Shown here: positions 2,400 to 34,840 of the stretch, piece by piece | How the letters are laid out: every line of letters begins with the position of its first letter | Position numbering within the stretch: the first letter of the stretch is position 1 | IMG/VR virus record: IMGVR_UViG_2778261252_000010 | Location: 1 to 42,179 of that record | DNA length: 42,179 bases | DNA from: a virus | Lineage: Duplodnaviria > Heunggongvirae > Uroviricota > Caudoviricetes | Direction: 5' to 3' (one strand) | Notes under the pieces: model-generated | The model's database searches: none | What the model was told of the DNA's origin: nothing | What the model saw: only the letters and a program-made list of their open reading frames with translations | Program-made: the position numbers and the translations under genes

Positions 2400-2490
2400 A
2401 TCATTAGCGCAAGACGAATCTTAACCTGTGATGATTTTGAGTTGTTTTGCGCTAATTTTTGCCCCATCCATGCCCCATCAAATCAATTTA

Positions 2491-4422
2491 TTAGTTTGTT
2501 AACACAGACCCACTTATGAGTATTGCATTTGACGTACTGGTTATGTTTGGCATCCAAACCACACCGTTAGTATCGATCATCGCAGATCCATAGTTCGTAC
2601 CAGCAGTATTCGAAACCTGTGCTGCACCTCCATATAACAGCCCTCCAAATGACGGAAGTGTCGTTTTTGATAGACCATGTTCACATGAAAGATAGTTTGT
2701 TGGCGACACTTTAACCGAAAAAGATACAATCTTATTATTTCTTGTAAATTTTCCTTCAATTAACGCACCTCCTGGAGCTGTCCAACCAGGGATCCCAGGT
2801 ATAAAGTCGCGACAACTCAAATCTCCTGTAATTGTTAAATAGTTCTGAATCCAGGAATCAGAACCAGCTATTCCTTTTGTTAGTTTTTCTGAATACACAT
2901 TAGTTATTTCTGTGTGCCCATTGACGCCTACAGCATTAATATCAGATGTCACATTACCTACCTGCGAATGTGATACTGGGTTTTCTATCAAAATATTACT
3001 ATTGGCACCGGATGTGCCATCCAACTTAACCAGGGCTCCATCTATGTCTCCAGTAAGATTTCCATTCCCTGCGCCATATGGGGAGGTAAGAACTACTTGA
3101 GAACACCCTGTAGATAGATAAAAAACACCTAACTTATTTCCTTCCCCTGCGCAGTTGATAGCAGTAAACCCTTCAACAGAATGCAGTATATAGCCATACC
3201 CAGAAACTTCACTTCCTTCACTTGCACAAGTGTTCATAGAGCAATAGATACAATTTTGGAAATAGAAATAACCACCAATGCCATAACAGTTTTCAAACAG
3301 CAATGAAGTACATGCCGGTTGCACACAGAAAGAAGGGCCACCTCCATGCATCCACACTTTGCAATGAGAGATATTCCCCATGAAAGCACAGTCTGTGCCA
3401 TTAGATTCCCCAAAGCGGATACCTTGCCCCCCAGGTCCAGTATCGGAATCCACAGTAAGACCAGTTAATCTAAAATCATCTATTTTAGTCAGCCATAAAG
3501 CGACTGAAAGCGAACTACCACCGGCACGATGCGATACATGAAAATCTTCTAAAACCAGACCTCTTACTCCCTTAAAAGTAATGGCACGCGAATTTTGCGG
3601 TATAGAATCAAAATTTAAATAGCAAAGGTTTTTAGTTTTGGCATTTGCCATATGATTATAAGAGCCAGTACCTGTTATTTTCAGGCTCGCCTCATCATTA
3701 AAGTCAATAACAAGTGGTTTTGAAAATTTATATTTACCACTTAAACTAATTTCTTTACCCCGTGCAGCAGCGATGCATTTTGTAAATGCTGCATGGCAAT
3801 CAACGGTGTCAGTAGGATCTGCTCCCCACCATTCGGGTTTGTAGCTCCCTTCTATTACCCTCTTCCATCTCCTACCGGAAGCCCCAACCAAAATGATTCC
3901 ATCATCATCATCGCTCGTAGTGTCTGTATCATCTAAATAAAACCATCCTTCTCCGCCATCAAATAACCCTGACCTCCCAAGGCAATATATTTTTTTTGAT
4001 TTCTCAGAATAAGTTCTTATATCAGAAAAATACGCTCCTCCAACCAGCGTTGAGCCATAAACATCGGCTAGGCGATTTGTGAACTGATCCGGGTCGTACT
4101 TCAGAACATTCGGAAAATAGAACTGCTGCGCCCCGTACGCATCATAAACAGCCATAGAATGGCCTTGCACAGTTACGAACTTGGCAATCTGTCCGTTATA
4201 TACCGGATAACCAGCAGCGTTAATGATGATTGGCTGTGCAACAGGAACGTGAGAACCATCTTCGTTCTCCACATAAACCTGAATCTGGTTTTCAGGATTT
4301 ACTGGGTCAGTGTCAATTTTACCGATATAAATTTTGCCATTAGCTACGGCTTTGAAAGAACGAGCCATAGTGAAGAGTTGCGATGGCATACTTACTACAA
4401 CATTGGCTGTAATGTCTGTCAT
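2491..4422 (-). CDS. Tailspike protein: P22 gp9-like N-terminal head-binding domain fused to a divergent, Cys-rich receptor-binding/depolymerase domain
   Basis: First ~115 aa ([11 protein letters not shown]...[19 protein letters not shown]...VLKYDPDQ) match the P22 tailspike head-binding domain from memory; last gene of the late operon, as gene 9 is in P22. Confidence 0.8.
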
Positions 4423-4480
4423 TTAATTTGCTCCAGATACAAGGAATCGCCGCAGCATGGCTACGGTGAATTTTGGGCAT

Positions 4481-4503
4481 AAAAAAACCCAGCCGAAGCT
4501 GGG
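4481..4503 (-). terminator. Intrinsic terminator downstream of ant
   Basis: On the minus strand: CCCAGC-ttcg-GCTGGG hairpin followed by TTTTTTT. Confidence 0.6.
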
Positions 4504-4522
4504 TCGTTGCGTTGGTTATCTG

Positions 4523-5425
4523 TCAGTAGTTATGTACTGAAGGAGGTAATTCTTTATTCTTAAGTCTCATCCATGCGGAAAGATTCGTTGGTCCGTCTGG
4601 CTCATTGATATCAACATCTCGTGTGTGATTGATTAAAACGTCTCTCGCCATTCCGATAACATACGAGAATTCATGACCGTAGTCGTAGCATCTGCCGGAA
4701 TAGTTCGATTGAATTTGTTTTAATGCCGGATACAGTTCGCGGAATAATGCCTGTGAACGGTTGGCATAATCCCATAACCATACAAGGCTGTTTGCTTCTT
4801 TTGCAGAAAGCTCGTTGGTTTTCTTCTCTTGTTTGCCAATGAACTCACCTTCAAGCACTACCCTGTGGATGTACTCTACTGCTTGCGGTATCTGAGATGC
4901 ATCAAGCTCTTCAATACTTTCCACATTGAAACGCTGATGAATCATTGCATAAGCTTCTGGGTACATTAGATGCTTTTTGCTGACTAGCATATTTACAGCA
5001 TCACGAAGCGGAGTCCTGTCATCAACAGATGTTTTCTTACGTGCATTTTCTGCCTTTCCCTTCGTCCAGTAGTCATGCAGCACAGTAAAGCATTCCTCCT
5101 GGTACTGAATCAGTTTATCGCGTATGTCAGCACGAACTTTCTCAGGGTTGATGCTGAACAGCCATCCATTTAACTTCTTCAAAGGAAGGCAGAGTAGCTT
5201 ACGAAGCTTACCATCAGCGGCAACCATATTCATATGAATACAGTTGAACTTATCTAGTTGTTTCATAAGTTTTTGTTGCTGAGTACCCCAGCTCATTCCG
5301 AGGTTTTCAACGATTGGCTTCATCGCAACATATGCAACTCCGGCAGCCATGGCGGTGATAATCTGCTGACCATTGAAAGGTACGTAAGAGGTGTTCACTG
5401 CTTCTAAAATTGCTATACTATTCAT
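4523..5425 (-). CDS. ant: Antirepressor Ant (P22 immI type)
   Basis: 300-aa product beginning [22 protein letters not shown] from the Met preceded by a GGAG ribosome-binding site; position downstream of arc in a mnt-arc-ant arrangement. Confidence 0.75.
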
Positions 5426-5487
5426 GTTGGTTTTTCTCCACGGATTTACCGACAACCGAAGCCCTGACTGTTACCGCAGTTGGGGCT

Positions 5488-5670
5488 TCACTGTTTTATG
5501 TTCACATCTAACATTGTTTTTCTAGAATTTAACTCTTTCCCCATCGCTTCAACGCAAAGAGATACACAACCACTACAGATAAATATCTCTGCTTTAGCGC
5601 GAATCAACATTGCACATTCATGCTGAGGCTTTCCGCAGAAGGAGCACTTAAAGCCATCTTCTTTATTCAT
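5488..5670 (-). CDS. 60-aa protein resembling the ClpX N-terminal C4 zinc-binding domain
   Basis: KCSFCGKPQHECAMLI...ICSGCVSLC aligns with ClpX YCSFCGKSQHEVRKLI...ICDECVDLC (same Cys spacing); start ATG overlaps the arc stop (ATGA) and is preceded by a GAGGG ribosome-binding site. Confidence 0.6.
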   Translation of the reverse strand: MNKEDGFKCSFCGKPQHECAMLIRAKAEIFICSGCVSLCVEAMGKELNSRKTMLDVNIKQ

Positions 5671-5819
5671 ATCGCCACACCCTCTCTCTTCAGGCTGTCT
5701 ATCAGGCGCTTGATAACCTCTGAGTTAAACGACCTGCACTCTTCCTTTGCCCTGCTACCGATAGCATCCTTTAACGACTGCGGCATCCTTACCAAAATCT
5801 TACTTATTTCTTTCTCCAT
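5667..5819 (-). CDS. arc: Arc-like ribbon-helix-helix repressor
   Basis: 50-aa product MEKEISKILVRMPQ...CRSFNSEVIKRL with an Arc/MetJ-type RHH signature; GGAGGG ribosome-binding site; divergent from mnt. Confidence 0.7.
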   Translation of the reverse strand: MEKEISKILVRMPQSLKDAIGSRAKEECRSFNSEVIKRLIDSLKREGVAI

Positions 5820-5933
5820 GTTACCCTCCACACAAACAACTCTTTTCGAATACAAAAGATAGCAAAGTGAGTATATCTAGTCAAAATTTTTTTGCATACA
5901 CTTTGATATCAAATTGAATACCAAAGGTGTGAT
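5820..5933. promoter_or_regulatory. Divergent Pant/Pmnt promoter-operator region of immI
   Basis: 114-bp AT-rich intergenic region between divergent arc and mnt; by analogy with P22 immI. Individual operators not resolved. Confidence 0.4.
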
Positions 5934-6185
5934 ATGGCAAAGGGTGTGTCAATTTCTCCAACTACGGTAAGAATCCCTGAATCTTTACGCGAGGCTCTTG
6001 CTGTCAGAGCATCAAAAAATGGTCGCTCTGTTAACTCCGAGATCGTCATGATTTTGCAAGCCGCGATTGATGAAGATAGGTCGCCAAAGTCAGTTGAGTC
6101 ATTTGCTCAGCAAGAAGCTGACAAATTCAAAGAGGCGCTGCTTGAGACGCTGAGGAACATGCAAGAAAACAAAAAACCCACCTGA
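5934..6185 (+). CDS. mnt: Mnt-like repressor (ribbon-helix-helix)
   Basis: 83 aa, same length as P22 Mnt, with N-terminal RHH motif (RIPESLREALAVRASKNGRSVNSEI). Confidence 0.7.
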   Translation: MAKGVSISPTTVRIPESLREALAVRASKNGRSVNSEIVMILQAAIDEDRSPKSVESFAQQEADKFKEALLETLRNMQENKKPT

Positions 6186-6199
6186 AGGTGGGTTTTATA
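6171..6199. terminator. Bidirectional intrinsic terminator between mnt and the convergent gene
   Basis: CCCACC-tgaa-GGTGGG hairpin flanked by an A-run upstream and a T-run downstream. Confidence 0.6.
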
Positions 6200-6200
6200 A

Positions 6201-7187
6201 TTAGATTTCTGGTTTTATTCTTCCAAAAACCTTTTCTATTCCTTTTTCGTATTCTTCTCTTGTCTCGCTCATCGCTGCGACACCAAGAAGCTTACCGATA
6301 TGCTGACGCAAAGCCTTGACACCAATTTCAGAAAGGAACAGGTGCAACTTATCAGATTGTTTTCCGTTCTCGTCTCGGCTGGCTCGAATCTGTTCAAGGA
6401 TTTTACCTTTACTCTTTGCTAGAGGAGTGTATATCTGCATGTTGGTTAGCTGCCCAAAACGAATTGGACGTCCTTTCTCTGGCCTGTTCAGGCCGTACAG
6501 TCGATACCACTCCTCATATAGCTCATCTGGAAATTCTTTTTCATACTGCCTCGCCTCTTCACGAACAAAGGCCTTGAAGGAATCAATAACCTCCTGTACT
6601 TCAGGTCGATATCCTGCAATAGCATAACCAAGTCCTTTAAGCCCTGCTTTCATTGATGCGGTAACAAGTCTTTGGGCAAGGCTGGCAGATTTTGATCTTG
6701 AAGGCGGTAGAGCGCCAGCTCGATCGGCATTAATCATTGCTGTGGCTATATCGCCGATAAGGGCAATATCGTAACCGTGAGCCTCATCAGCGAGTGGATT
6801 TGGGGCTGAGTTTGGGACCGGACTTCTCCATTGAAAAATAAGAGGTTTTTTGAATTTTTCTAGCAGAAATGGATCAACAAAATCAGCCATATAATTCGTA
6901 TTTAGAAAACGGTCTACATCCCTACCATGCTCACCGATTCCTAGTAATTTAGCCAGACCAGTTTTACTAACTACAACCGTTTTATCATTATCATCAAGTA
7001 CGTAACATTCTGCATCAATGCCGAAATCATCAATGAAGTTACCCTTTCTGATCGCTCTTAGTGGCTTACCTTCCCATCGTTTTGCCGCTGCTTTCTTTGC
7101 TATTTCAGAACGCTGCTCTTTAGTCAGCGACTTTGCGCGAGCGATCCCGCCCTTAGCTTTCCCTTCGCCACTTTTCTTTTCAGTCAT
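6201..7187 (-). CDS. Hypothetical phage protein, paralog of the cI-downstream gene 33149..34069 (possibly P63C-type regulator domain; unverified)
   Basis: 329 aa from an ATG with AGGTG ribosome-binding site (the ORF track extends to 7262); shares blocks with the 33149..34069 product (AECYVLDD vs IDCYVLD; FPDELYEEWYRLYG vs FPDELWEEFGRLTG). Confidence 0.65.
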   Translation of the reverse strand: MTEKKSGEGKAKGGIARAKSLTKEQRSEIAKKAAAKRWEGKPLRAIRKGNFIDDFGIDAECYVLDDNDKTVVVSKTGLAKLLGIGEHGRDVDRFLNTNYMADFVDPFLLEKFKKPLIFQWRSPVPNSAPNPLADEAHGYDIALIGDIATAMINADRAGALPPSRSKSASLAQRLVTASMKAGLKGLGYAIAGYRPEVQEVIDSFKAFVREEARQYEKEFPDELYEEWYRLYGLNRPEKGRPIRFGQLTNMQIYTPLAKSKGKILEQIRASRDENGKQSDKLHLFLSEIGVKALRQHIGKLLGVAAMSETREEYEKGIEKVFGRIKPEI

Positions 7188-7343
7188 AATGCAAGCACCT
7201 TTATTGTGATGTATGCTTGCATTATATGCACTGTACACACATACAAGCAAGCATAAAACCAAAACAAAATGCTTGCATTACAACCGCGCTACTCCAACTA
7301 CACATTATCATCTGGTATCCTGCGCAAAACTAAGGAGGTTGGT

Positions 7344-7838
7344 GTGTCTGATTCTATGAGTTACGCTGTGCTAGTTGCCGCAACTCTATTTCTGGGGATA
7401 GGGTTGCAGATTGCGTGGTTCTTTTTTTCTAGTTTTATTAAACGTAAAAGAATTGAATCAAGGATATCTGAGATTTCTATTGCTATAGGGAAAAATGCTG
7501 AAAATCCAGAGAATGAGGCCTGCGCACTGAATTACCTTAAAGAAAAGTTTTCCCCTGAAAAATTTGAAAACAGAATTACTGATGCTCTTGGATTGGTAAT
7601 ATCAGTAATTCATATGCCACTAAGTTTGCTGATAACAGTGTGGTACTTCGCCATGATCGCCGGAAGAATATTTGGTTTCATGAATATAGAGCCTGTAGTT
7701 CTTTGGGTTCCAATGATACTGCAATTGTTGTTAAGCGTTGCTATCTTTATTTTTTCTGTTTTTATAAAAATTGTCTTCGGAAGATACCCCGGAGAAGCGA
7801 AGGGATTTAATAAAGAATTCATAAAAACTATAAAATAA
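7344..7838 (+). CDS. Small polytopic inner-membrane protein in the sieA position (putative superinfection-exclusion or moron product)
   Basis: AT-rich ORF with several hydrophobic helices; strong AAGGAGG ribosome-binding site before GTG 7344 (in-frame ATG at 7356 is an alternative start); opposite strand to the late operon. Confidence 0.55.
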
Positions 7839-7860
7839 ATGCCGTCCTTGGCTTACAGTG

Positions 7861-9735
7861 CTACTGCCGGGTAGCTTCGTTAACTAAGAGCGGGCGCACG
7901 GCAGTAGCCGCCTGATTTAGCGCTCTTTCATAAGCTGGCGTTCCAGCTTTAGTGTTTGCCAGACGTAAGAGCGCATTCCTTGCTGCTTTGGATTCATACA
8001 AGCGCATCATTGCACCGAAACCAGCCTCAAGCCCCATTGATACGCCAAGAGTCGTAGTTGCGCCAATCGTCCTTATCCTGTTGGCTTGCGATTGCCCCGT
8101 CTGAGTTACTACATTTGCGGTGTCTGATCTTGCTGTTTGCTGTAGAACTTCATGAAGAGCATCAAGCTCTTTCATGTGCTTTCCAGAAAAAATAGTGTTG
8201 TAAATTTCACCGCCTGACTGAGATTTAAGCTTATTAACTTCAGTGATGAACTTGGCTGGAGAGTCACCGGCCTTTTCCGCTATTTTGCTGACGTAAGCTG
8301 CACGCATAGCATCTTTCCCTTTATCATCCAATGCGCTCCAGATTCGTTTCACGTCAGATGGTTTTCTGCTTAATACAACGGTATTTATAAGTTCAGGACT
8401 GGCTTCACTGCTTGCCTTGTTGAGCTTGTTAGCAATGTTTTTATTAAGCACCTTATTATAAACGTTTGCATAATCGGAATTTGCTTTAAGGTATTTTGCT
8501 GCGTCTGATGCACCGAGGTTTTTAGCAACTGCGTTACGAAGGTCTTTTGACATTGCATTCTCTACCATATTGGTAGCTGCTTTTGCCTGGTTGGGGAAGA
8601 CCATAGCATCTCCCTGAACATTAGATCTAAATGCTGTTCTGTGCTGACGCAAGAGATCAAACGTAACATCCAAATCAGTTGCAGGGTTTGCTAATTCTTC
8701 ACGTAGGTTACGCAAGGATGTAAGCAGGCTTTGATTGGCAGACGTCCCAAGCCGTTCCTGTCTTGCGATCGCTGTATTCAGAGCATTCATGGTATTTGTG
8801 GTATCAACTGCGGCATTACCCATTTTATTGGTGACGTCATTGATAACAGCGCCAGCGGCATCCTTCCGCCCCCTTAACGTGGTGGTAAGAGATTTCACCA
8901 CATCATCAGGGTTGTACTCACCAAACCGGTCAAAATAATTACTTACCAGCTTACTACGCGTTGCATATTGCTCCGCTCGCTTTGAGCCTGTCCCGAGCAA
9001 AGCCCCCTCGGCATCCTGAGTTAGGCCGCGAGTGAAAGCATTTTTCGGCGGGATAACATCAGATGTCATTGGTGTCACGCCCATCGATTCTGATGTGGCA
9101 ATTTTCTTCGCCACTTCTGGCGCAATATCACCTTTTATAGCCGTTATTCCACGCCCTATTCCCTTTGCTGCTGCGGAAAGAACACCCTGAGCGGCAAGGT
9201 TAACTCCGGCATTTTTAGCTGCATTTTGTGCGAAATCGCCTTTCTGATTTGCGGCCTCTGCCAGTGATCCAATAGCCATGCTTCCTGCCGTTCCAACTCC
9301 TGGAACTAAATACCCGCCAATTGTTTCTCCAGCTTGCGCATAAGGGTCTGTCGGTCGATCGACTGGACGATAGACATCATCCAATACTTTTGGCCCACCA
9401 AGCCCCTGACTGATTGCATTAATCAGACTTGCGCCACCCTGCAATACGTCAAATGGTATGTTTACCAGACCACGACCAGCCTGTTCTGCAATTTGCCCTG
9501 CACTTTGACCACCAGTGAGCCAATCGCCAGCTTGTTGCATCAATGATGGTTCTTCTTTCTGCTGCTGAGGCGGAGGGTATGCTGCATAAAACTGATCTCT
9601 TGCTTCAGCCCATTTGTCACCAGCCTTAGGGGCAACAACCTCATCAAAATATTGCGCTTGAGCCTGTGCTTTCTGTTCTTCAGTTAACGCCTGATACTGT
9701 GGAGAGGCGATAACATCTTTCCATGCTTTAGCCAT
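7861..9735 (-). CDS. Ejection (internal virion) protein, P22 gp16-like
   Basis: 624 aa, Ala/Gln/Gly-rich; N-terminus [22 protein letters not shown] and position match P22 gene 16. Confidence 0.75.
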
Positions 9736-28676: not shown

Positions 28677-30557
28677 TTAATACTCCGTCACGTTTTCCTG
28701 TCGCCACGCCTCGTCATATTCCGATTTCGGCATATTGGCGATGTAGCTATATGGCGATCCTGATTCAAGTTGCAGGAACTGGTGCGATTGCTCGTCAAGG
28801 AACAACGGGACGCCACCTTCCCAACCTTCGCCGTTACGTTGTTTTTCAAGCATCAAAACAGATGCCGGAGATGCCAGTAGCTGTTCGTCCTTCTCTGACA
28901 TCTTTTCACCACTCTGAACTCTCTGTAACGCTCTCTCGCGAGCCTTGTTACGCCAGATGATGAAAAGGTTGTCTGTCAGGTCTGTTATCGCTCCAGAGCC
29001 TTTTACGTCCATTTTCCCGGTTGGTTTTTCTTCGCTGTCTCCTTTTCGCGAGTGAGTAACGAGAATGACGTGGGAGTTTGTTTTGTTTTTGAAGTCGCAA
29101 ATCGAGTCAACAAATGCTTTCTGCCCGTTATAATCATCGTCACCTATGCCGCATTTCATCAGGCTGTCGATGATGAATAACTGGATGCCGTATCGGCGGC
29201 GAGCGTAGTCGAATATTTCGATCAGCCTGTCGGCTTTCGCCGTTCCTGTCAGGCCAAACACCCAAAGTCTTTCGTCATAGAATTTAAATGCAGAGTCAAT
29301 TTCAAGCACTGGCGGCATCTTGCAGCACGTTGCCTGACGGGTAAGTCGCTTAAGGAGAATACCAGGCTTCAGCTCAAGTGACGCGATGCACGTCTTCACA
29401 CCCTGACGCATTGCCTCAAGTGCCATATGCCCGACAACCTCCGTTTTTCCGTGACCGTTCACACCATTGACCAGCGTCAACTCTGCCTCACGGAACTGGA
29501 ATTTATCTGCCAGAGATTCCCACGGTGGATTAAACAGATACTGCTGCTTGCCGTAGAAAGCGTTGATAGTGTCCTGGTAAAACTCTCGCGCGCTGTAGAG
29601 TTCTTCAGGGTCGAAGTAGGATGACGTGCCGATGTACTGCCAGATTTCATCCTCGGTAACACCGTTCATCAGGCATTCGTTGATGTCTTTGTACGGCAGA
29701 GTAACAAGACGGCAACGATGTTCACCGAGTCGGCTTGCGATTTCCCTTGCGGCTTCACGACCAACATCATCAACGTCCATCGAGATGAATATTTCCTCAA
29801 ACCTGTCGAGGTTGTGATACTCAAACTCAATCCACTGCTGTTTAGCGCCTTTCCCGCCACCAAACGGCACGGATAACGCCGAGATGCCATATTGCGCATA
29901 GCTCATACAATCAATTTCGCCTTCGCAAAGTACAACCGCCCTCACGCCAGCGTCCAGAGCCTGCCATCCGAACAGACAAGGTTCGCAATCACCTTCTGCC
30001 ATAATGACTTTCTTCCCGTCCGGGCGCTCAGTGCTGATTCGCTTGACCTGCAACAACTCACCATCGCGTTTGTACGGAATCACCAGAGCATCCAGTTCCA
30101 GCTCTCCATTCCACACCTTGCCGCTGACAACCTCGTAGCGCTTTACGATTTCTGGCGATATGCCACGCGATTGCAGGTACTCAAGATGGGATTCTGTTCT
30201 GGTAACGTAGCGGGCGATTTTCTTGCGATCAGGTCTGGAGAATTTCTTCTCACGTTTGGCATCGAAATGGTGATCGTCATCCTTGATACCGAGAAAGGCT
30301 TTCGCTTCCTGCATAGCCTGATGCAGGTTAATTCCACGACATGCCATCCACAAATCAAGCATGTCACCGCCGTCTCCCTCAGCGAAATCAGCCCATTTTT
30401 TCTTGCCGCTAAGGTTGACCTTAAGGCTGTTTCCCTTGTCACCGTTGACGTTACCGGCAACCCACTCATGCCCCTCTTTCTTGCCGTTTGGCAACAGGTG
30501 CGGAGCCACCCTGTCAACCTGCGCCCAAAGCAGGTCGCTAAGTTCACTTGGTGTCAT
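28677..30557 (-). CDS. Bifunctional primase-helicase (TOPRIM primase N-terminal, DnaB/RecA-like helicase C-terminal)
   Basis: 626 aa; Walker A GVNGHGKTEV in the C-terminal half, acidic TOPRIM-like CEGEIDC/DVDDVG segments in the N-terminal half; follows the O-like initiator. Confidence 0.7.
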   Translation of the reverse strand: MTPSELSDLLWAQVDRVAPHLLPNGKKEGHEWVAGNVNGDKGNSLKVNLSGKKKWADFAEGDGGDMLDLWMACRGINLHQAMQEAKAFLGIKDDDHHFDAKREKKFSRPDRKKIARYVTRTESHLEYLQSRGISPEIVKRYEVVSGKVWNGELELDALVIPYKRDGELLQVKRISTERPDGKKVIMAEGDCEPCLFGWQALDAGVRAVVLCEGEIDCMSYAQYGISALSVPFGGGKGAKQQWIEFEYHNLDRFEEIFISMDVDDVGREAAREIASRLGEHRCRLVTLPYKDINECLMNGVTEDEIWQYIGTSSYFDPEELYSAREFYQDTINAFYGKQQYLFNPPWESLADKFQFREAELTLVNGVNGHGKTEVVGHMALEAMRQGVKTCIASLELKPGILLKRLTRQATCCKMPPVLEIDSAFKFYDERLWVFGLTGTAKADRLIEIFDYARRRYGIQLFIIDSLMKCGIGDDDYNGQKAFVDSICDFKNKTNSHVILVTHSRKGDSEEKPTGKMDVKGSGAITDLTDNLFIIWRNKARERALQRVQSGEKMSEKDEQLLASPASVLMLEKQRNGEGWEGGVPLFLDEQSHQFLQLESGSPYSYIANMPKSEYDEAWRQENVTEY

Positions 30558-30664: not shown

Positions 30665-31525
30665 TCACCTGTCGAAAAACACGTAGCCAGTTTTCGATAC
30701 GGTGATTGCGGATGATGGTTTGGATTGTGGTTGAATGGTTTCTGGCTTCTCGTCGTTCCAGCGCTGACCGTTCAGGTAGCTCGATGGTAACAACCTGTCG
30801 AATCCGAACTGCTTACCATTCCTGCATGCGATGTCTTCTGCCAGCATCGTGGCAAACTCGCTTGCCGTACCCCTGGTAGTTTTACGCCATTCCCTGAACT
30901 GTGTTCTGAATGCTGAAGCTGCGTTTTTCTTCCCGGCTTTCCGCATGCCCGCACACCAGAATATTTCCTCGAATGCCTTGTCGGTTTCTTCGTGATGGTC
31001 AGGTGATTTTTCACACTCCGTCCGAACACTTTCGGACATAGTGTTTTTATTATTTCTTTTTTCTTTTGTAATAGTTTCTTTTGTGTGTCCCTGTTTTGGT
31101 GACAGCGCTGTCACCGTTTTGGTGACACTTTTTGTCACCAATGCAGTGACATTATCACCAGAGTAGTGACACCCTTCTATTTGCCATTCCTCGATGTTCT
31201 TGTTAGGCCCGATTTGCTGGCCTTCGCGAAGGATAACCTTCATCGCGATAAGCTCATTCTTGGCCTTGTTTACCTTCTGTCTTGGCAGCCTGGTAATTTG
31301 AGCTAACTGACTATCAGAAATGCGATCCATCTTTTTACCGTAGCCGTATGTTTTACGGCATATGGCGTGGGCAACCTTGCTCTGATTTTTCGTTAAATCT
31401 GCGCCGATAAGCTCTTCATACAGGGCATTTGCAAGACGGGTATAACCATCTTCAACTTCTGCCACACGACGCTCCACAGGCCGTTGTGAAGGCCTTAAAT
31501 GTGTTACGGTTGCAAGATTACTCAT
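30665..31525 (-). CDS. Replication initiation protein (lambda O-like N-terminal domain)
   Basis: 286 aa; N-terminal HTH region ([13 protein letters not shown]...[22 protein letters not shown]); iterons embedded in the coding sequence. Confidence 0.7.
31093..31172. repeat. Origin iterons (GTGACA-containing repeats) inside the initiator gene
   Basis: GTTTTGGTGACA twice (31093 and 31116) plus at least four further GTGACA/TGTCACC copies within ~80 bp. Confidence 0.6.
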
Positions 31526-32099: not shown

Positions 32100-32327
32100 T
32101 TATGCAGCCAGAAGGTTCTTTTTGCTTATTTCAAGCATTTCGCTTGCTTGATATTTGCCACCAGAAATCTCTTCGATTTTTGATGCGTATTTAGTTTTCC
32201 CAAAAAACTCAGTCTTAGGGAGGAAGCCGTTTTTGAGCCACTTATAGACAGCCCTTTCGCTAACTCCACAAGCCTTCGCAACTTCAGGGATGCCGACACC
32301 TTTAATCGGCTCATCAAGATTTTGCAT
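32100..32327 (-). CDS. cro: Cro-like repressor (HTH)
   Basis: 75 aa, HTH VAKACGVSERAVYKWLKNG; divergent from the cI-like gene across an operator region. Confidence 0.7.
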   Translation of the reverse strand: MQNLDEPIKGVGIPEVAKACGVSERAVYKWLKNGFLPKTEFFGKTKYASKIEEISGGKYQASEMLEISKKNLLAA

Positions 32328-32406
32328 AGGAATATCCTTTTTTCGTACTTTCAGTACGCATTATGATTGAACTGAAAGTTTTTGCAAGTGCTTTAGTATC
32401 GTACTC
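32328..32406. promoter_or_regulatory. OR / pR-pRM region with palindromic operators
   Basis: 79-bp region between divergent cro and cI; palindromes CGTAC-TTTCA-GTACG (32344..32358) and CTTTCAGT/ACTGAAAG; TCGTAC half-site also near 34288. Confidence 0.5.
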
Positions 32407-33114
32407 ATGGTTCAGAATGAAAAAGTGCGCAAAGAATTCGCCCAGCGGCTAGCGCAAGCCTGTAAAGAAGCTGGTCTTGATGAACATGGTAGGGGGATGG
32501 CCATAGCCCGTGCCCTTTCTCTTTCGTCCAAAGGCGTTAGCAAATGGTTTAATGCTGAGTCTTTACCGCGTCAGGAAAAAATGAATGCGCTTGCGAAATT
32601 TCTAAACGTTGATGTTGTTTGGCTTCAGCACGGAACTTCGTTAAATGGAGCGAATGATGAAGATACTCTTTCATTTGTTGGCAAATTAAAAAAAGGGTTA
32701 GTGCGCGTGGTTGGTGAGGCAATTCTTGGTGTTGATGGTGCCATCGAGATGACCGAAGAGCGCGATGGGTGGCTCAAAATTTATAGCGATGATCCTGATG
32801 CCTTTGGTCTTCGTGTGAAAGGAGACAGCATGTGGCCCAGAATAAAATCAGGAGAATATGTACTCATTGAGCCTAACACCAAAGTCTTCCCGGGTGATGA
32901 GGTGTTTGTCAGAACCATCGAAGGACACAACATGATCAAGATTCTTGGCTATGACAGAGATGGAGAATACCAGTTTACAAGCATCAACCAAGACCACAGG
33001 CCAATAACGTTGCCTTATCATCAAGTAGCAAAGGTGGAGTATGTGGCTGGTATTCTGAAGCAATCTCGTCATCTGGATGACATCGAGGCAAGGGAGTGGC
33101 TGAAAAATTCGTGA
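32407..33114 (+). CDS. CI-type prophage repressor (HTH plus LexA-like S24 peptidase domain)
   Basis: 235 aa; N-terminal HTH; C-terminal autocleavage domain with GDSM Ser motif and downstream Lys. Confidence 0.8.
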   Translation: MVQNEKVRKEFAQRLAQACKEAGLDEHGRGMAIARALSLSSKGVSKWFNAESLPRQEKMNALAKFLNVDVVWLQHGTSLNGANDEDTLSFVGKLKKGLVRVVGEAILGVDGAIEMTEERDGWLKIYSDDPDAFGLRVKGDSMWPRIKSGEYVLIEPNTKVFPGDEVFVRTIEGHNMIKILGYDRDGEYQFTSINQDHRPITLPYHQVAKVEYVAGILKQSRHLDDIEAREWLKNS

Positions 33115-33148
33115 CTTCATCGTCACATAGCTGGTAACCAGTGGCCTG

Positions 33149-34069
33149 ATGAGACGTTTGGGTGATTCAACGCAGCGAAAAAGGGTAATTCAATTAATGG
33201 AACATGATGATTTACAGCAATTACCATCCCCATTCGCAAAATGGAAGGGGAAGATCGACTTAGGTGGTGAAAGTATTGATTGCTATGTGCTTGACACTGG
33301 ACATCGTGTTATAGCTTTGCGAGCAACTGTAAAAGCAATTGCCAATGCGGAGTCAGGAGACCTGGCTAAATTTATTGGCGTTAGCTCACTTAATGGCTTT
33401 ATAGACAAAGACTTAGTCCTGGCCGAACTCATAGAGTTTTCCATACCAGGAACCCAATTTAAGAGCCAAGGACTTAAGACTGAGCAATTTGAATTGATTT
33501 GTCGCGGCTATGTACAGGCGCTATACAAAGGCGCGCCATTGACAGATAGACAGCGAGAAATAGCAATTAAATGTGCTGTATTAACAGCTGGTTTAACTAG
33601 GACTGGGTTAGATGCTCTAATTGATGAGGCTACTGGGTATCAGTATGAGCGTGCAGAGGATGCTCTCCAAGTAAAACTCAGGGCGTTCATCGCTGAGGAA
33701 CTAAGAGCATGGGAAAAAACATTTCCTGATGAGTTATGGGAAGAATTTGGTAGATTGACAGGATGGAGCACCCCATTGCAATCAAGGCCCAAATGGTGGG
33801 GGAAATTGGTTATAGAGTTAATTTATGACACTCTTGACGAAGATGTGGCTAAATATCTTAAAGAAAACAAGCCTGCGGCAGGAGTTCACTGGCATAGACA
33901 GTTAACCGAGAACCTAGGTGTAAGGCAGCTTGTATCAAGGTGCTGGGAGGTTATTGGGGTCGCAAAAACATGCGACACCATGCATGAGCTAAGAAGTCGA
34001 GTTGCTCAACACTATGGAAAGAAACCTGTTCAAATGACAATGTATTTACCGGAAAAAGAAATTAAATAA
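33149..34069 (+). CDS. Hypothetical protein in the rexAB position (co-oriented with cI), paralog of 6201..7187; candidate lysogen-expressed exclusion/defense gene
   Basis: 306-aa ORF 35 bp after cI and before the terminator and OL/pL; shares sequence blocks with 6201..7187. Confidence 0.65.
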   Translation: MRRLGDSTQRKRVIQLMEHDDLQQLPSPFAKWKGKIDLGGESIDCYVLDTGHRVIALRATVKAIANAESGDLAKFIGVSSLNGFIDKDLVLAELIEFSIPGTQFKSQGLKTEQFELICRGYVQALYKGAPLTDRQREIAIKCAVLTAGLTRTGLDALIDEATGYQYERAEDALQVKLRAFIAEELRAWEKTFPDELWEEFGRLTGWSTPLQSRPKWWGKLVIELIYDTLDEDVAKYLKENKPAAGVHWHRQLTENLGVRQLVSRCWEVIGVAKTCDTMHELRSRVAQHYGKKPVQMTMYLPEKEIK

Positions 34070-34076
34070 TATACAA

Positions 34077-34102
34077 CCCGGCCTCAGCGCCGGGTTTTCT
34101 TT
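34077..34102 (+). terminator. Intrinsic terminator ending the cI operon
   Basis: CCCGGC-ctcagc-GCCGGG hairpin followed by TTTTCTTT. Confidence 0.65.
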
Positions 34103-34279
34103 GCCTCACGATCCCCACACCTAATAACACCTTAACCAATTGTATTTATTGAAAAATTGATAGATACAACTTGCTAAACCACGAAATTCTGATCCCTGCC
34201 GCATAACCTTCATCCGCAACATTTACAAAAATAAATTTCCTTATATATCAAAATCATATTTCGTAGAGTTAATAAATCA

Positions 34280-34330
34280 CAAAATTTTCGTACCAATAGT
34301 TCTTGATAATGTCGAACTATTGGTTCATTA
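34280..34330. promoter_or_regulatory. Putative OL/pL operator-promoter region
   Basis: AT-rich region upstream of nutL and N containing a TCGTAC half-site (34288..34293) and a 10-bp inverted repeat ACCAATAGTT/AACTATTGGT. Confidence 0.4.
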
Positions 34331-34377
34331 TTATCGCCATCAGCAGGAAGCTGGAAGCCAAACGGAACAGATTGGCA

Positions 34378-34531: not shown

Positions 34532-34840
34532 ATGACGGTAATCGTGTACGGAAAATCAACATTTGCAGGAAATGCCAAAACTCGCCGTCATGAGCGGCGC
34601 AGAAAGCTGGCTATCGAGCGTGATGCTATATGCAACATCATCGATTCGATCTTCGGCACAGACAGTGAGGAACCTGTTCAGGAAGCCCCGAGAAAGCGTT
34701 TAAGCATTTCTGAAAAAGCAATATCACTCGGCATCATTAGCAAATCAAATACAGATGCGAATAGCGGAAGCGTTTGTTTGCCTGAAGTTGCACTGTATGC
34801 TGCTGGTTACAGAAGGCAAAAACTAATTACAGCGAGGTAA
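34532..34840 (+). CDS. Antiterminator N (P22 gene 24 type)
   Basis: 102 aa from the Met with GAGGA ribosome-binding site; arginine-rich motif GNAKTRRHERRRKLAIER matches the P22 N boxB-binding peptide from memory. Confidence 0.8.
   Translation: MTVIVYGKSTFAGNAKTRRHERRRKLAIERDAICNIIDSIFGTDSEEPVQEAPRKRLSISEKAISLGIISKSNTDANSGSVCLPEVALYAAGYRRQKLITAR

Follow-up and report, generated by a model that had tools for sequence, protein, structure and literature searches.

The interval between the cI repressor gene and the antitermination gene N of lambdoid prophages has already been the source of RexAB, Stk, Hex, and BstA. The two Rex proteins of phage lambda are a sensor and a membrane protein. Genes carried on the pRM transcript are accessory and serve mostly exclusion functions: in phage 933W the genes of this slot, stk among them, are cotranscribed with cI, and stk aborts infection by HK97; in phage 434 the pRM-cotranscribed gene hex, located 3' of cI, has an exclusion phenotype and dampens RecA-stimulated cleavage of cI (PMC3564112). 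BstA, a 307-amino-acid (aa) protein expressed at high levels in lysogens, is described as pairing a KilA-N-like DNA-binding domain at the N-terminus (aa 32-147) with another domain at the C-terminus; on infection it localizes to the incoming phage's replicating DNA and brings about abortive infection, and aba, a short DNA element at the 5' end of bstA, confers self-immunity (Owen et al. 2021, PMC8585504). BstA gathers in foci at sites of phage replication. Here we analyze the occupant of this slot in IMG/VR record IMGVR_UViG_2778261252_000010 (positions 1 to 42,179; this whole stretch of 42,179 nucleotides (nt) is called the window below). It is an open reading frame (ORF) of 306 aa at 33149..34069 whose product belongs to the P63C family.

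Both the P63C family and the hotspot are already catalogued, and nothing in this locus is categorically new. What is new relative to the searchable literature is the systematic linkage of a very large family to repressor genes, its presence in the exact slot of bstA, stk, and rexAB, and possibly a sensor domain in common with BstA. The gene is very likely exchangeable accessory cargo of the pM/pRM operon that is expressed in the lysogen. Its product may be a BstA-like exclusion or abortive-infection protein, the likeliest of the functions weighed below and one that we put forward tentatively and by analogy. Residue numbers refer throughout to the 306-aa frame, and feature coordinates are collected in Table 1.

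Results

The Gene Lies in the Slot Used by rexAB, stk, and bstA

An earlier note on this DNA had described the gene as following cI on the same strand, in an architecture like lambda cI-rexA-rexB, with a clean intrinsic terminator separating it from OL/pL and N. Our analysis bears this description out. The ORF is co-oriented with cI, and six bases past its stop codon lies a hairpin (34075..34096; 8-bp stem with 6 G-C pairs, 6-nt loop, then TTTTCTTTG) that precedes the pL-like promoter and N. This G+C-rich hairpin (folding free energy -14.6 kcal/mol, z -3.15 relative to shuffled sequences) and its U tract (tail UUUUCUUUG) have the form of an intrinsic terminator, and 933W has an identical terminator under the annotation 'tM; putative terminator for pM transcript'. 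The hairpin is terminator-like on the minus strand too (tail GTATATTATT) and may act bidirectionally.

The terminator and ~125 nt beyond it are 85-89% identical to the DNA that follows rexB in lambda-type prophages, so the rexAB slot is recognizable here by sequence, beyond analogy. The operon logic is the same as that of lambda cI-rexA-rexB, but there is no protein similarity, and one cytoplasmic protein is encoded here versus two Rex proteins. The immunity region is that of 933W. Window positions 32300-32430 are 98% identical to the annotated OR/pM/pR DNA of that phage, the cI protein is 98.7-99.1% identical to cI of 933W and Shiga toxin (Stx) phages (98.7% for 933W), and the linker core and tM are identical. 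The cargo, however, is unrelated, and 933W carries its P63C gene in the nin region instead.

Two conserved flanks delimit the slot. On the left, a linker (Table 1) occurs once in the window (0 occurrences expected). Six loci, with four kinds of cargo and three or more cI alleles among them, have its 17-nt core without a change, and a close variant stands upstream of bstA in the Salmonella prophage BTP1. The linker directly follows several different cI alleles and precedes every cargo type; it may mark a boundary for recombination or act as an RNA element within the pM transcript. A hammerhead ribozyme was considered (the linker contains CUGAUGAG) and rejected: Rfam at an expectation value (E) ≤10 returned three sub-threshold matches, none of them a hammerhead. 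The motif CGAAA downstream of this CUGAUGAG is present with P63C cargo only. On the right, the flank is AACCCGGCCTCAGCGCCGGGTTTTCTTTGCCTCAC, and its 31-nt core, CCCGGCCTCAGCGCCGGGTTTTCTTTGCCTCAC, is identical in 6/6 loci regardless of cargo.

Between flanks of this kind lie very different genes. The cargo of 933W comprises a DUF3024 gene, a RuvC-like gene, stk, and a small ORF; other Escherichia coli prophages carry DUF2335, DUF1828, a HigB toxin gene annotated beside a helix-turn-helix (HTH) gene, or hypothetical genes. In E. coli genomes H164/H165 (NZ_CP027325.1, NZ_CP074885.1), H150, and H179-H183, the interval between cI and tM holds the HigB-family toxin and HTH gene in some prophages and DUF1828 in others, and the right flank is also seen after rexB in lambda-type prophages. 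In BTP1 the same flank type, with the linker variant and a terminator of the same type, encloses bstA. The linker and tM offer a simple sequence handle for cataloguing what this hotspot carries across E. coli and Salmonella genomes.

The P63C gene itself is rare, with 11 carriers among 5,426 complete E. coli genomes, in which it stands next to two cI alleles; in EC28-type prophages its annotated coding sequence has an 8-nt overlap with the end of a different cI. In phage ST104 an HK022-type cI is followed by a distant P63C paralog (27% identical). By tblastn this paralog is also found in ~20 other P22-like Salmonella phages, the context having been viewed in ST104.

The predicted cotranscription of the gene with cI from pM/pRM in the lysogen, ending at tM, is well supported by homology to 933W and BTP1. 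Gene and repressor are co-oriented with no terminator or promoter between them, and the unit closes at tM upstream of OL/pL; a plus-strand promoter scan from pM to the gene found no sigma-70-like promoter. A position downstream of the prophage repressor and a rho-independent terminator of its own are likewise what is seen for bstA.

The Protein Is Most Likely 290 aa Long

The earlier note had given a 306-aa gene beginning 35 bp after cI. The ORF exists, at a gap of 34 nt, but translation probably starts at ATG 33197, which widens the gap to 82 nt. Several observations led us to this length. ATG 33149 falls within the conserved noncoding linker, and the equivalent position is AAG in 933W, EC28, and MS21-1. 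All enterobacterial orthologs begin ME.EE..Q.PSPFAKWKG, equivalent to ATG 33197, and the homolog in Salmonella phage SI5 is annotated with the same start, which has an AAGGA Shine-Dalgarno sequence. The Prokaryotic Genome Annotation Pipeline (PGAP) calls a gene of 873 nt on 99.8%-identical DNA from strain EC02. Finally, homolog similarity to the 306-aa protein sets in at about residue 15, and residues 1-23 are disordered in the AlphaFold2 (AF2) model of that protein.

P63C Is a Large, Widespread, and Constrained Family

The earlier note could place the protein in no defense family it knew of, and took the paralog at 6201..7187 to be its only clear relative. Neither PADLOC nor a hidden Markov model (HMM) of BstA matched the protein, in keeping with the first statement, but its own family is readily assigned. 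Pfam P63C (PF10546) matched aa 177-261 (E 2.5e-22; 79.7 bits against a cutoff of 26.1) and was also found in 111/111 diverse relatives. The PHROG profile phrog_2384, whose category is 'unknown function', matched aa 14-303 over profile positions 32-336 of 338 (E 3.9e-87). The paralog is genuine (26% identity, E 2e-21) but far from alone: an exhaustive profile search recovered 3,652 clusters at 50% identity with E ≤1e-3, 706 of them at E ≤1e-30. NCBIfam gave no match for the protein, nor did PDB sequences with single-protein or profile queries. The P63C domain was reportedly first described by Iyer, Koonin and Aravind in 2002 among shuffled viral regulator domains; the searchable full-text literature on P63C or PF10546 yielded passing annotation mentions only.

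A close and unusually conserved subfamily, 71-90% identical, spans alpha-, beta-, and gammaproteobacteria (Enterobacter, Klebsiella, Serratia, Pseudomonas, Stutzerimonas, Delftia, Burkholderiaceae, Aureimonas, Sulfitobacter, and Caulobacterales). Orthologs in alphaproteobacterial phages and prophages remain 79-84% identical to the E. coli protein, which indicates wide horizontal spread together with strong constraint; they include those of Paracoccus phage vB_PkoS_Pkon1 (3857..4834; 83.5% identity) and Aureimonas (4001..4930). Relative to the SI5 ortholog, nonsynonymous divergence is low (dN 0.08) at saturated synonymous sites (proportion differing, pS, 0.79), so the gene has been under strong purifying selection.

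A minority of the family carries extra N-terminal DNA-binding modules: HTH_3, Cro/YdaS, MerR, RelB, or an IS1595 Zn-ribbon. Such variable add-ons on a conserved core were seen in family members P0096, P0269, P0366, and P0388. Many members, the window paralog included, also have a basic N-terminal motif, GGxARAxxL...RW. Its fuller form is GGxARAxxLxxxxRxxIAxxAAxxRW; the paralog has the motif at its N-terminus (7187..7080), and it is absent from the cI-linked copy.

P63C Genes Are Frequently Linked to Repressor Genes

Among 79 IMG/VR loci, an S24 repressor gene lay directly upstream of the P63C gene (gap ≤400 nt, same strand) in 27, corresponding to 12 of 47 clusters at 90% identity. One lay within 2 kb in 31 loci (16 of the 47 clusters), and the linkage held in all identity tiers. 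By a rough chance expectation, ~2% of random genes in a phage of ~60 genes would be repressor-adjacent. The arrangement, a P63C gene after a co-oriented repressor gene of the S24 or another type, recurs in Salmonella phages SI5 and ST104, in Klebsiella (three of the four places shown), in Stutzerimonas (2/2), and in Erwinia phage Midgardsormr38. In Pseudomonas chlororaphis and Delftia prophages two small ORFs separate repressor and P63C, and in the Streptococcus prophage Javan515 the P63C gene is flanked by repressor and integrase.

Elsewhere P63C genes lie beside an integrase gene or at the border of the prophage (DC1, Lodos, Petra, Aureimonas), in the nin region, or in immI-like regions; these non-repressor contexts are likewise typical moron sites. 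In Pkon1 the gene adjoins two Arc-like genes and a KilA-N gene. In Salmonella phage SEN34 it lies at 2438..3466, antisense to its nin-region neighbors and adjoining dinI, and looks like a self-contained transcription unit within the early operon.

A Predicted Two-Domain Protein with a Possibly BstA-Like N-Terminal Domain

The AF2 model (predicted local distance difference test (pLDDT) 80.9) has two domains. The N-terminal domain follows the order beta-beta-beta-alpha-alpha-alpha-beta-beta-alpha-alpha-alpha, with pLDDT mostly 86-98; a helical C-terminal domain (aa 190-290) includes the Pfam P63C region. Between them, a long helix (aa 169-189) is the sole internal region with pLDDT <50. Conservation peaks over aa 147-211 (window 33589..33781), a stretch that is 88-98% identical in eight orthologs from three proteobacterial classes and contains LIDEATGYQYER...FPDELWEEFGRL. 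Because this most conserved stretch overlaps the low-confidence helix, the pattern suggests that aa 147-211, helix 169-189 included, form a partner-binding or oligomerization interface. Positions that vary little or not at all across the family hold mostly hydrophobic residues, Gly, Pro, or Cys, which does not point to an enzyme.

The modeled N-domain weakly resembles Bro-N folds. In Foldseek searches of predicted viral structures (BFVD), Bro-N or 'Repressor domain' proteins made up ~30 of the top 50 matches (E 3e-3 to 0.3, probability up to 0.98), and the SKI/Dachshund DHD was the only PDB signal for this domain. The likeness to Bro-N/KilA-N proteins (phage antirepressors such as Roi; baculovirus BRO) is one of N-domain fold only: 0 of 111 diverse family members matched the Pfam Bro-N (PF02498) or KilA-N HMMs even at E ≤1, and a Pfam scan of the protein and 111 members found no ANT/KilAC or P22_AR domain. 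Kinship with Roi or P22 Ant was considered and rejected, hhalign comparisons with Roi and with the window's own Ant giving E 0.4-0.7. Among the results that the earlier note listed as counting against its reading was a firm assignment to a housekeeping phage function such as a replication protein or an antirepressor; what we found was this weak fold likeness to Bro-N.

The P63C protein and BstA share the slot that separates cI from N in P22-like prophages, bstA being enclosed by a close variant of the linker and the same terminator type; they are of like length (307 versus 290-306 aa) and have two domains each; and both families occur in alpha-, beta-, and gammaproteobacteria, usually linked to a repressor. 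Aligned by hhalign, the P63C family at aa 44-166 matched the BstA family at aa 29-151, collinearly and over 113 columns (E 6.8e-4, probability 27%); reversed-sequence controls gave E 0.15. In an AF2 model of BstA (pLDDT 82.3), the N-domain has the same order of secondary-structure elements as P63C under the hhalign register. BstA strands 19-25, 28-33, and 38-40 correspond to P63C strands 29-38, 41-48, and 53-56, and BstA helices 42-49, 53-61, 70-81, 105-117, 125-136, and 139-147 to P63C helices 57-65, 72-76, 87-92, 111-126, 133-152, and 154-162. The two N-domains are probably homologous. The P63C protein is an analog of BstA, possibly a distant relative, and lies outside the BstA family: BLASTP against BstA gave no match (E 1.6), and an HMM of 54 BstA homologs detected nothing among the window ORFs. 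The Pfam set used lacks the BstA C-terminal domain PF26567, and BstA itself matches 0 families there.

Discussion

BstA occupies the same slot between the same flanks, and the mechanism that we propose is drawn from this analogy. A cytoplasmic two-domain protein of ~290 aa would be made constitutively in the lysogen; its N-domain would recognize the DNA of a superinfecting phage, or that phage's replication or early complex; and the conserved segment aa 147-211, together with the P63C module, would then block the superinfecting phage's development, by exclusion or abortive infection. Purifying selection, repressor linkage, homology of the slot, the BstA-like N-domain, and the DNA-binding add-ons of the family all argue for this reading.

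Several observations weigh against it. The PADLOC search for known defense families was negative, and the searchable literature holds neither experimental data nor a reported function for any P63C protein. The similarity to BstA is marginal by HHsuite probability and confined to the N-domain; the C-domains are unrelated, that of P63C being all-helical and BstA_C combining helices with beta-hairpins. A self-immunity element like aba was sought by sequence alone and none was detected: the gene holds no inverted repeat of ≥8 nt beyond a trivial palindrome, and no stretch of excess synonymous conservation, an unreliable first window aside. A predicted template modeling (pTM) score of 0.50 makes it uncertain how the two domains are placed relative to each other, and there is no evident catalytic motif or family-wide invariant residue of catalytic type. 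Lastly, P63C genes also lie in the nin region beside roi (933W) and in immI-like regions by ant, arc, or mnt (the window paralog, Pkon1), places where lytic-phase regulators are found too.

A different function in the lysogen would be that of a DNA-binding transcription regulator for lysogenic conversion, which would reprogram genes of the host or of a co-resident prophage; we regard this as unlikely.

The tight linkage of P63C genes to S24 (RecA-cleavable) repressors could also point to a modulator of the phage's own switch, one that tunes spontaneous induction through RecA-mediated repressor cleavage or through antirepressors. The model here is 434 Hex, which is encoded in the same kind of position, 3' of cI on the pRM transcript, and dampens RecA-stimulated cI cleavage (PMC3564112); the paralogs beside antirepressor modules (ant/mnt, arc, roi) would fit as well. 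Hex differs, in a comparison made by description only, in being a 158-aa ORF that partly overlaps cI and in acting on RecA-mediated cleavage, and PMC3564112 contains no hint of kinship. Against a role in the switch, identity of the P63C protein holds at 72-90% despite wide divergence of the repressor alleles next to it, the same 933W-type cI (98-99% identical) functions beside unrelated cargo, and many family members are not repressor-adjacent. A Hex-like role is quite unlikely.

A pro-phage lytic function of the Roi/Ant type, in which the protein is an antirepressor or a helper of early transcription or replication that has come to lie after cI by chance, is very unlikely. The neighborhood of roi in the pR-driven nin region, where 933W and other Stx phages have a P63C gene, would suit it, as would the N-domain fold, common to proteins annotated as antirepressors or 'Repressor domain proteins'. 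The lack of ANT/KilAC and P22_AR domains and the negative hhalign comparisons with Roi and Ant speak against it, and the gene is dispensable and rare. In the window it is co-oriented with cI and isolated by tM from pL and pR, and the SEN34 copy runs antisense to the nin genes.

That the gene is a selfish or neutral passenger, a cassette spreading without benefit by recombination at conserved flanks that ease exchange, would accord with its patchy distribution in E. coli but is scarcely credible given the strong purifying selection at saturated synonymous sites, the full-length two-domain architecture kept over ~3,650 clusters, and a positional association that is seen beyond the enterobacteria as well, in genomes that lack these flanks.

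If the product is a BstA-like defense protein, a function would follow for thousands of prophage genes in Enterobacteriaceae, Pseudomonas, Burkholderiales, alphaproteobacteria, streptococci, and actinobacteria that are now annotated 'P63C domain-containing protein', with a mechanistic tie to BstA through the common sensor domain. It is possible, though doubtful, that P63C as a whole is a large, unrecognized, prophage-encoded and repressor-linked anti-phage family that has an ancestral Bro-N/KilA-N-type sensor in common with BstA and a different effector (aa 147-211 and the P63C helices). On that view the cI-N slot would carry a single modular 'sensor plus swappable effector' defense class, with BstA and P63C as its two arms, and the second copy in immI would give the phage two specificities. 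The proposal of a BstA-like exclusion protein is directly testable, because the gene is small, acts singly, and resides in E. coli.

Other Features of the Window

Table 1. Features of the window at and around the cI-linked P63C gene and its paralog
Feature	Position	Strand	Basis or remark
P22 Ant	4523..5455	-	paralog neighbor
Arc/Mnt-like ribbon-helix-helix protein	5934..6185	+	paralog neighbor
P63C paralog, 328 aa, immI-like region	6201..7187	-	26% identity, E 2e-21; P63C E 1e-13
Membrane protein, 189 aa, sieA position	7269..7838	+	paralog neighbor
gp16-like protein	7861..9735	-	paralog neighbor
cro	32100..32327	-	75-aa ORF, divergent from cI; counterpart annotated Cro in SI5 and 933W
OR operators oR1-oR3	32344..32414	.	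transferred from 933W annotation
pM	~32372..32399	+	position transferred from 933W annotation
pR	~32387..32360	-	transferred from 933W annotation; promoter-like site found there by scan
cI repressor, 235 aa, 933W immunity type	32407..33114	+	HTH_3 and Peptidase_S24
Left-boundary linker, CCAGTGGCCTGA[T/A]GAGACGTTTGGGTGA	33138..33165	+	conserved across loci
P63C-family ORF as first given, 306 aa	33149..34069	+	ORF listing, Pfam, PHROG
Likeliest true coding sequence, 290 aa, beginning MEHDDLQQLPSPFAKWKG	33197..34069	+	ortholog starts, PGAP, model disorder
N-terminal alpha/beta domain, aa 28-165, Bro-N/KilA-N-like and BstA-N-like (predicted)	33230..33643	+	AF2, Foldseek, hhalign
P63C domain, all-helical C-terminal module, aa 177-261	33677..33931	+	Pfam PF10546; AF2 helices
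tM intrinsic terminator, right slot boundary	34075..34104	+	hairpin scan; 933W annotation
pL-like promoter inside OL	34303..34331	+	TTGATA-17-CATTAT; region conserved with 933W
N antiterminator, P22 gp24-like	34532..34840	+	translation begins MTVIVYGKSTFAGNAKTRRHERRRK; EC02 annotation 'transcriptional antitermination N peptide'

A family HMM run over all six-frame ORFs of the window found exactly two members, the cI-linked gene and the paralog. The paralog and its neighbors (4523..9735) form a P22 immI-like region, so that the phage has a P63C gene at each of two distinct moron hotspots.

As a whole, the window is a prophage of E. coli, HK620/P22-like (Lederbergvirus-type) and with a 933W immunity region aboard. 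Its genome is a mosaic, since the immunity region is of 933W type and the virion genes are of HK620 type, their source lineages being different. In place of lambda O/P, the replication module on the minus strand (28677..30557 and 30665..31525) encodes a 626-aa primase/helicase fusion and a 286-aa protein. The same module is present in Salmonella phage SI5, where the homolog of the 286-aa protein is annotated as a helix-turn-helix domain protein.

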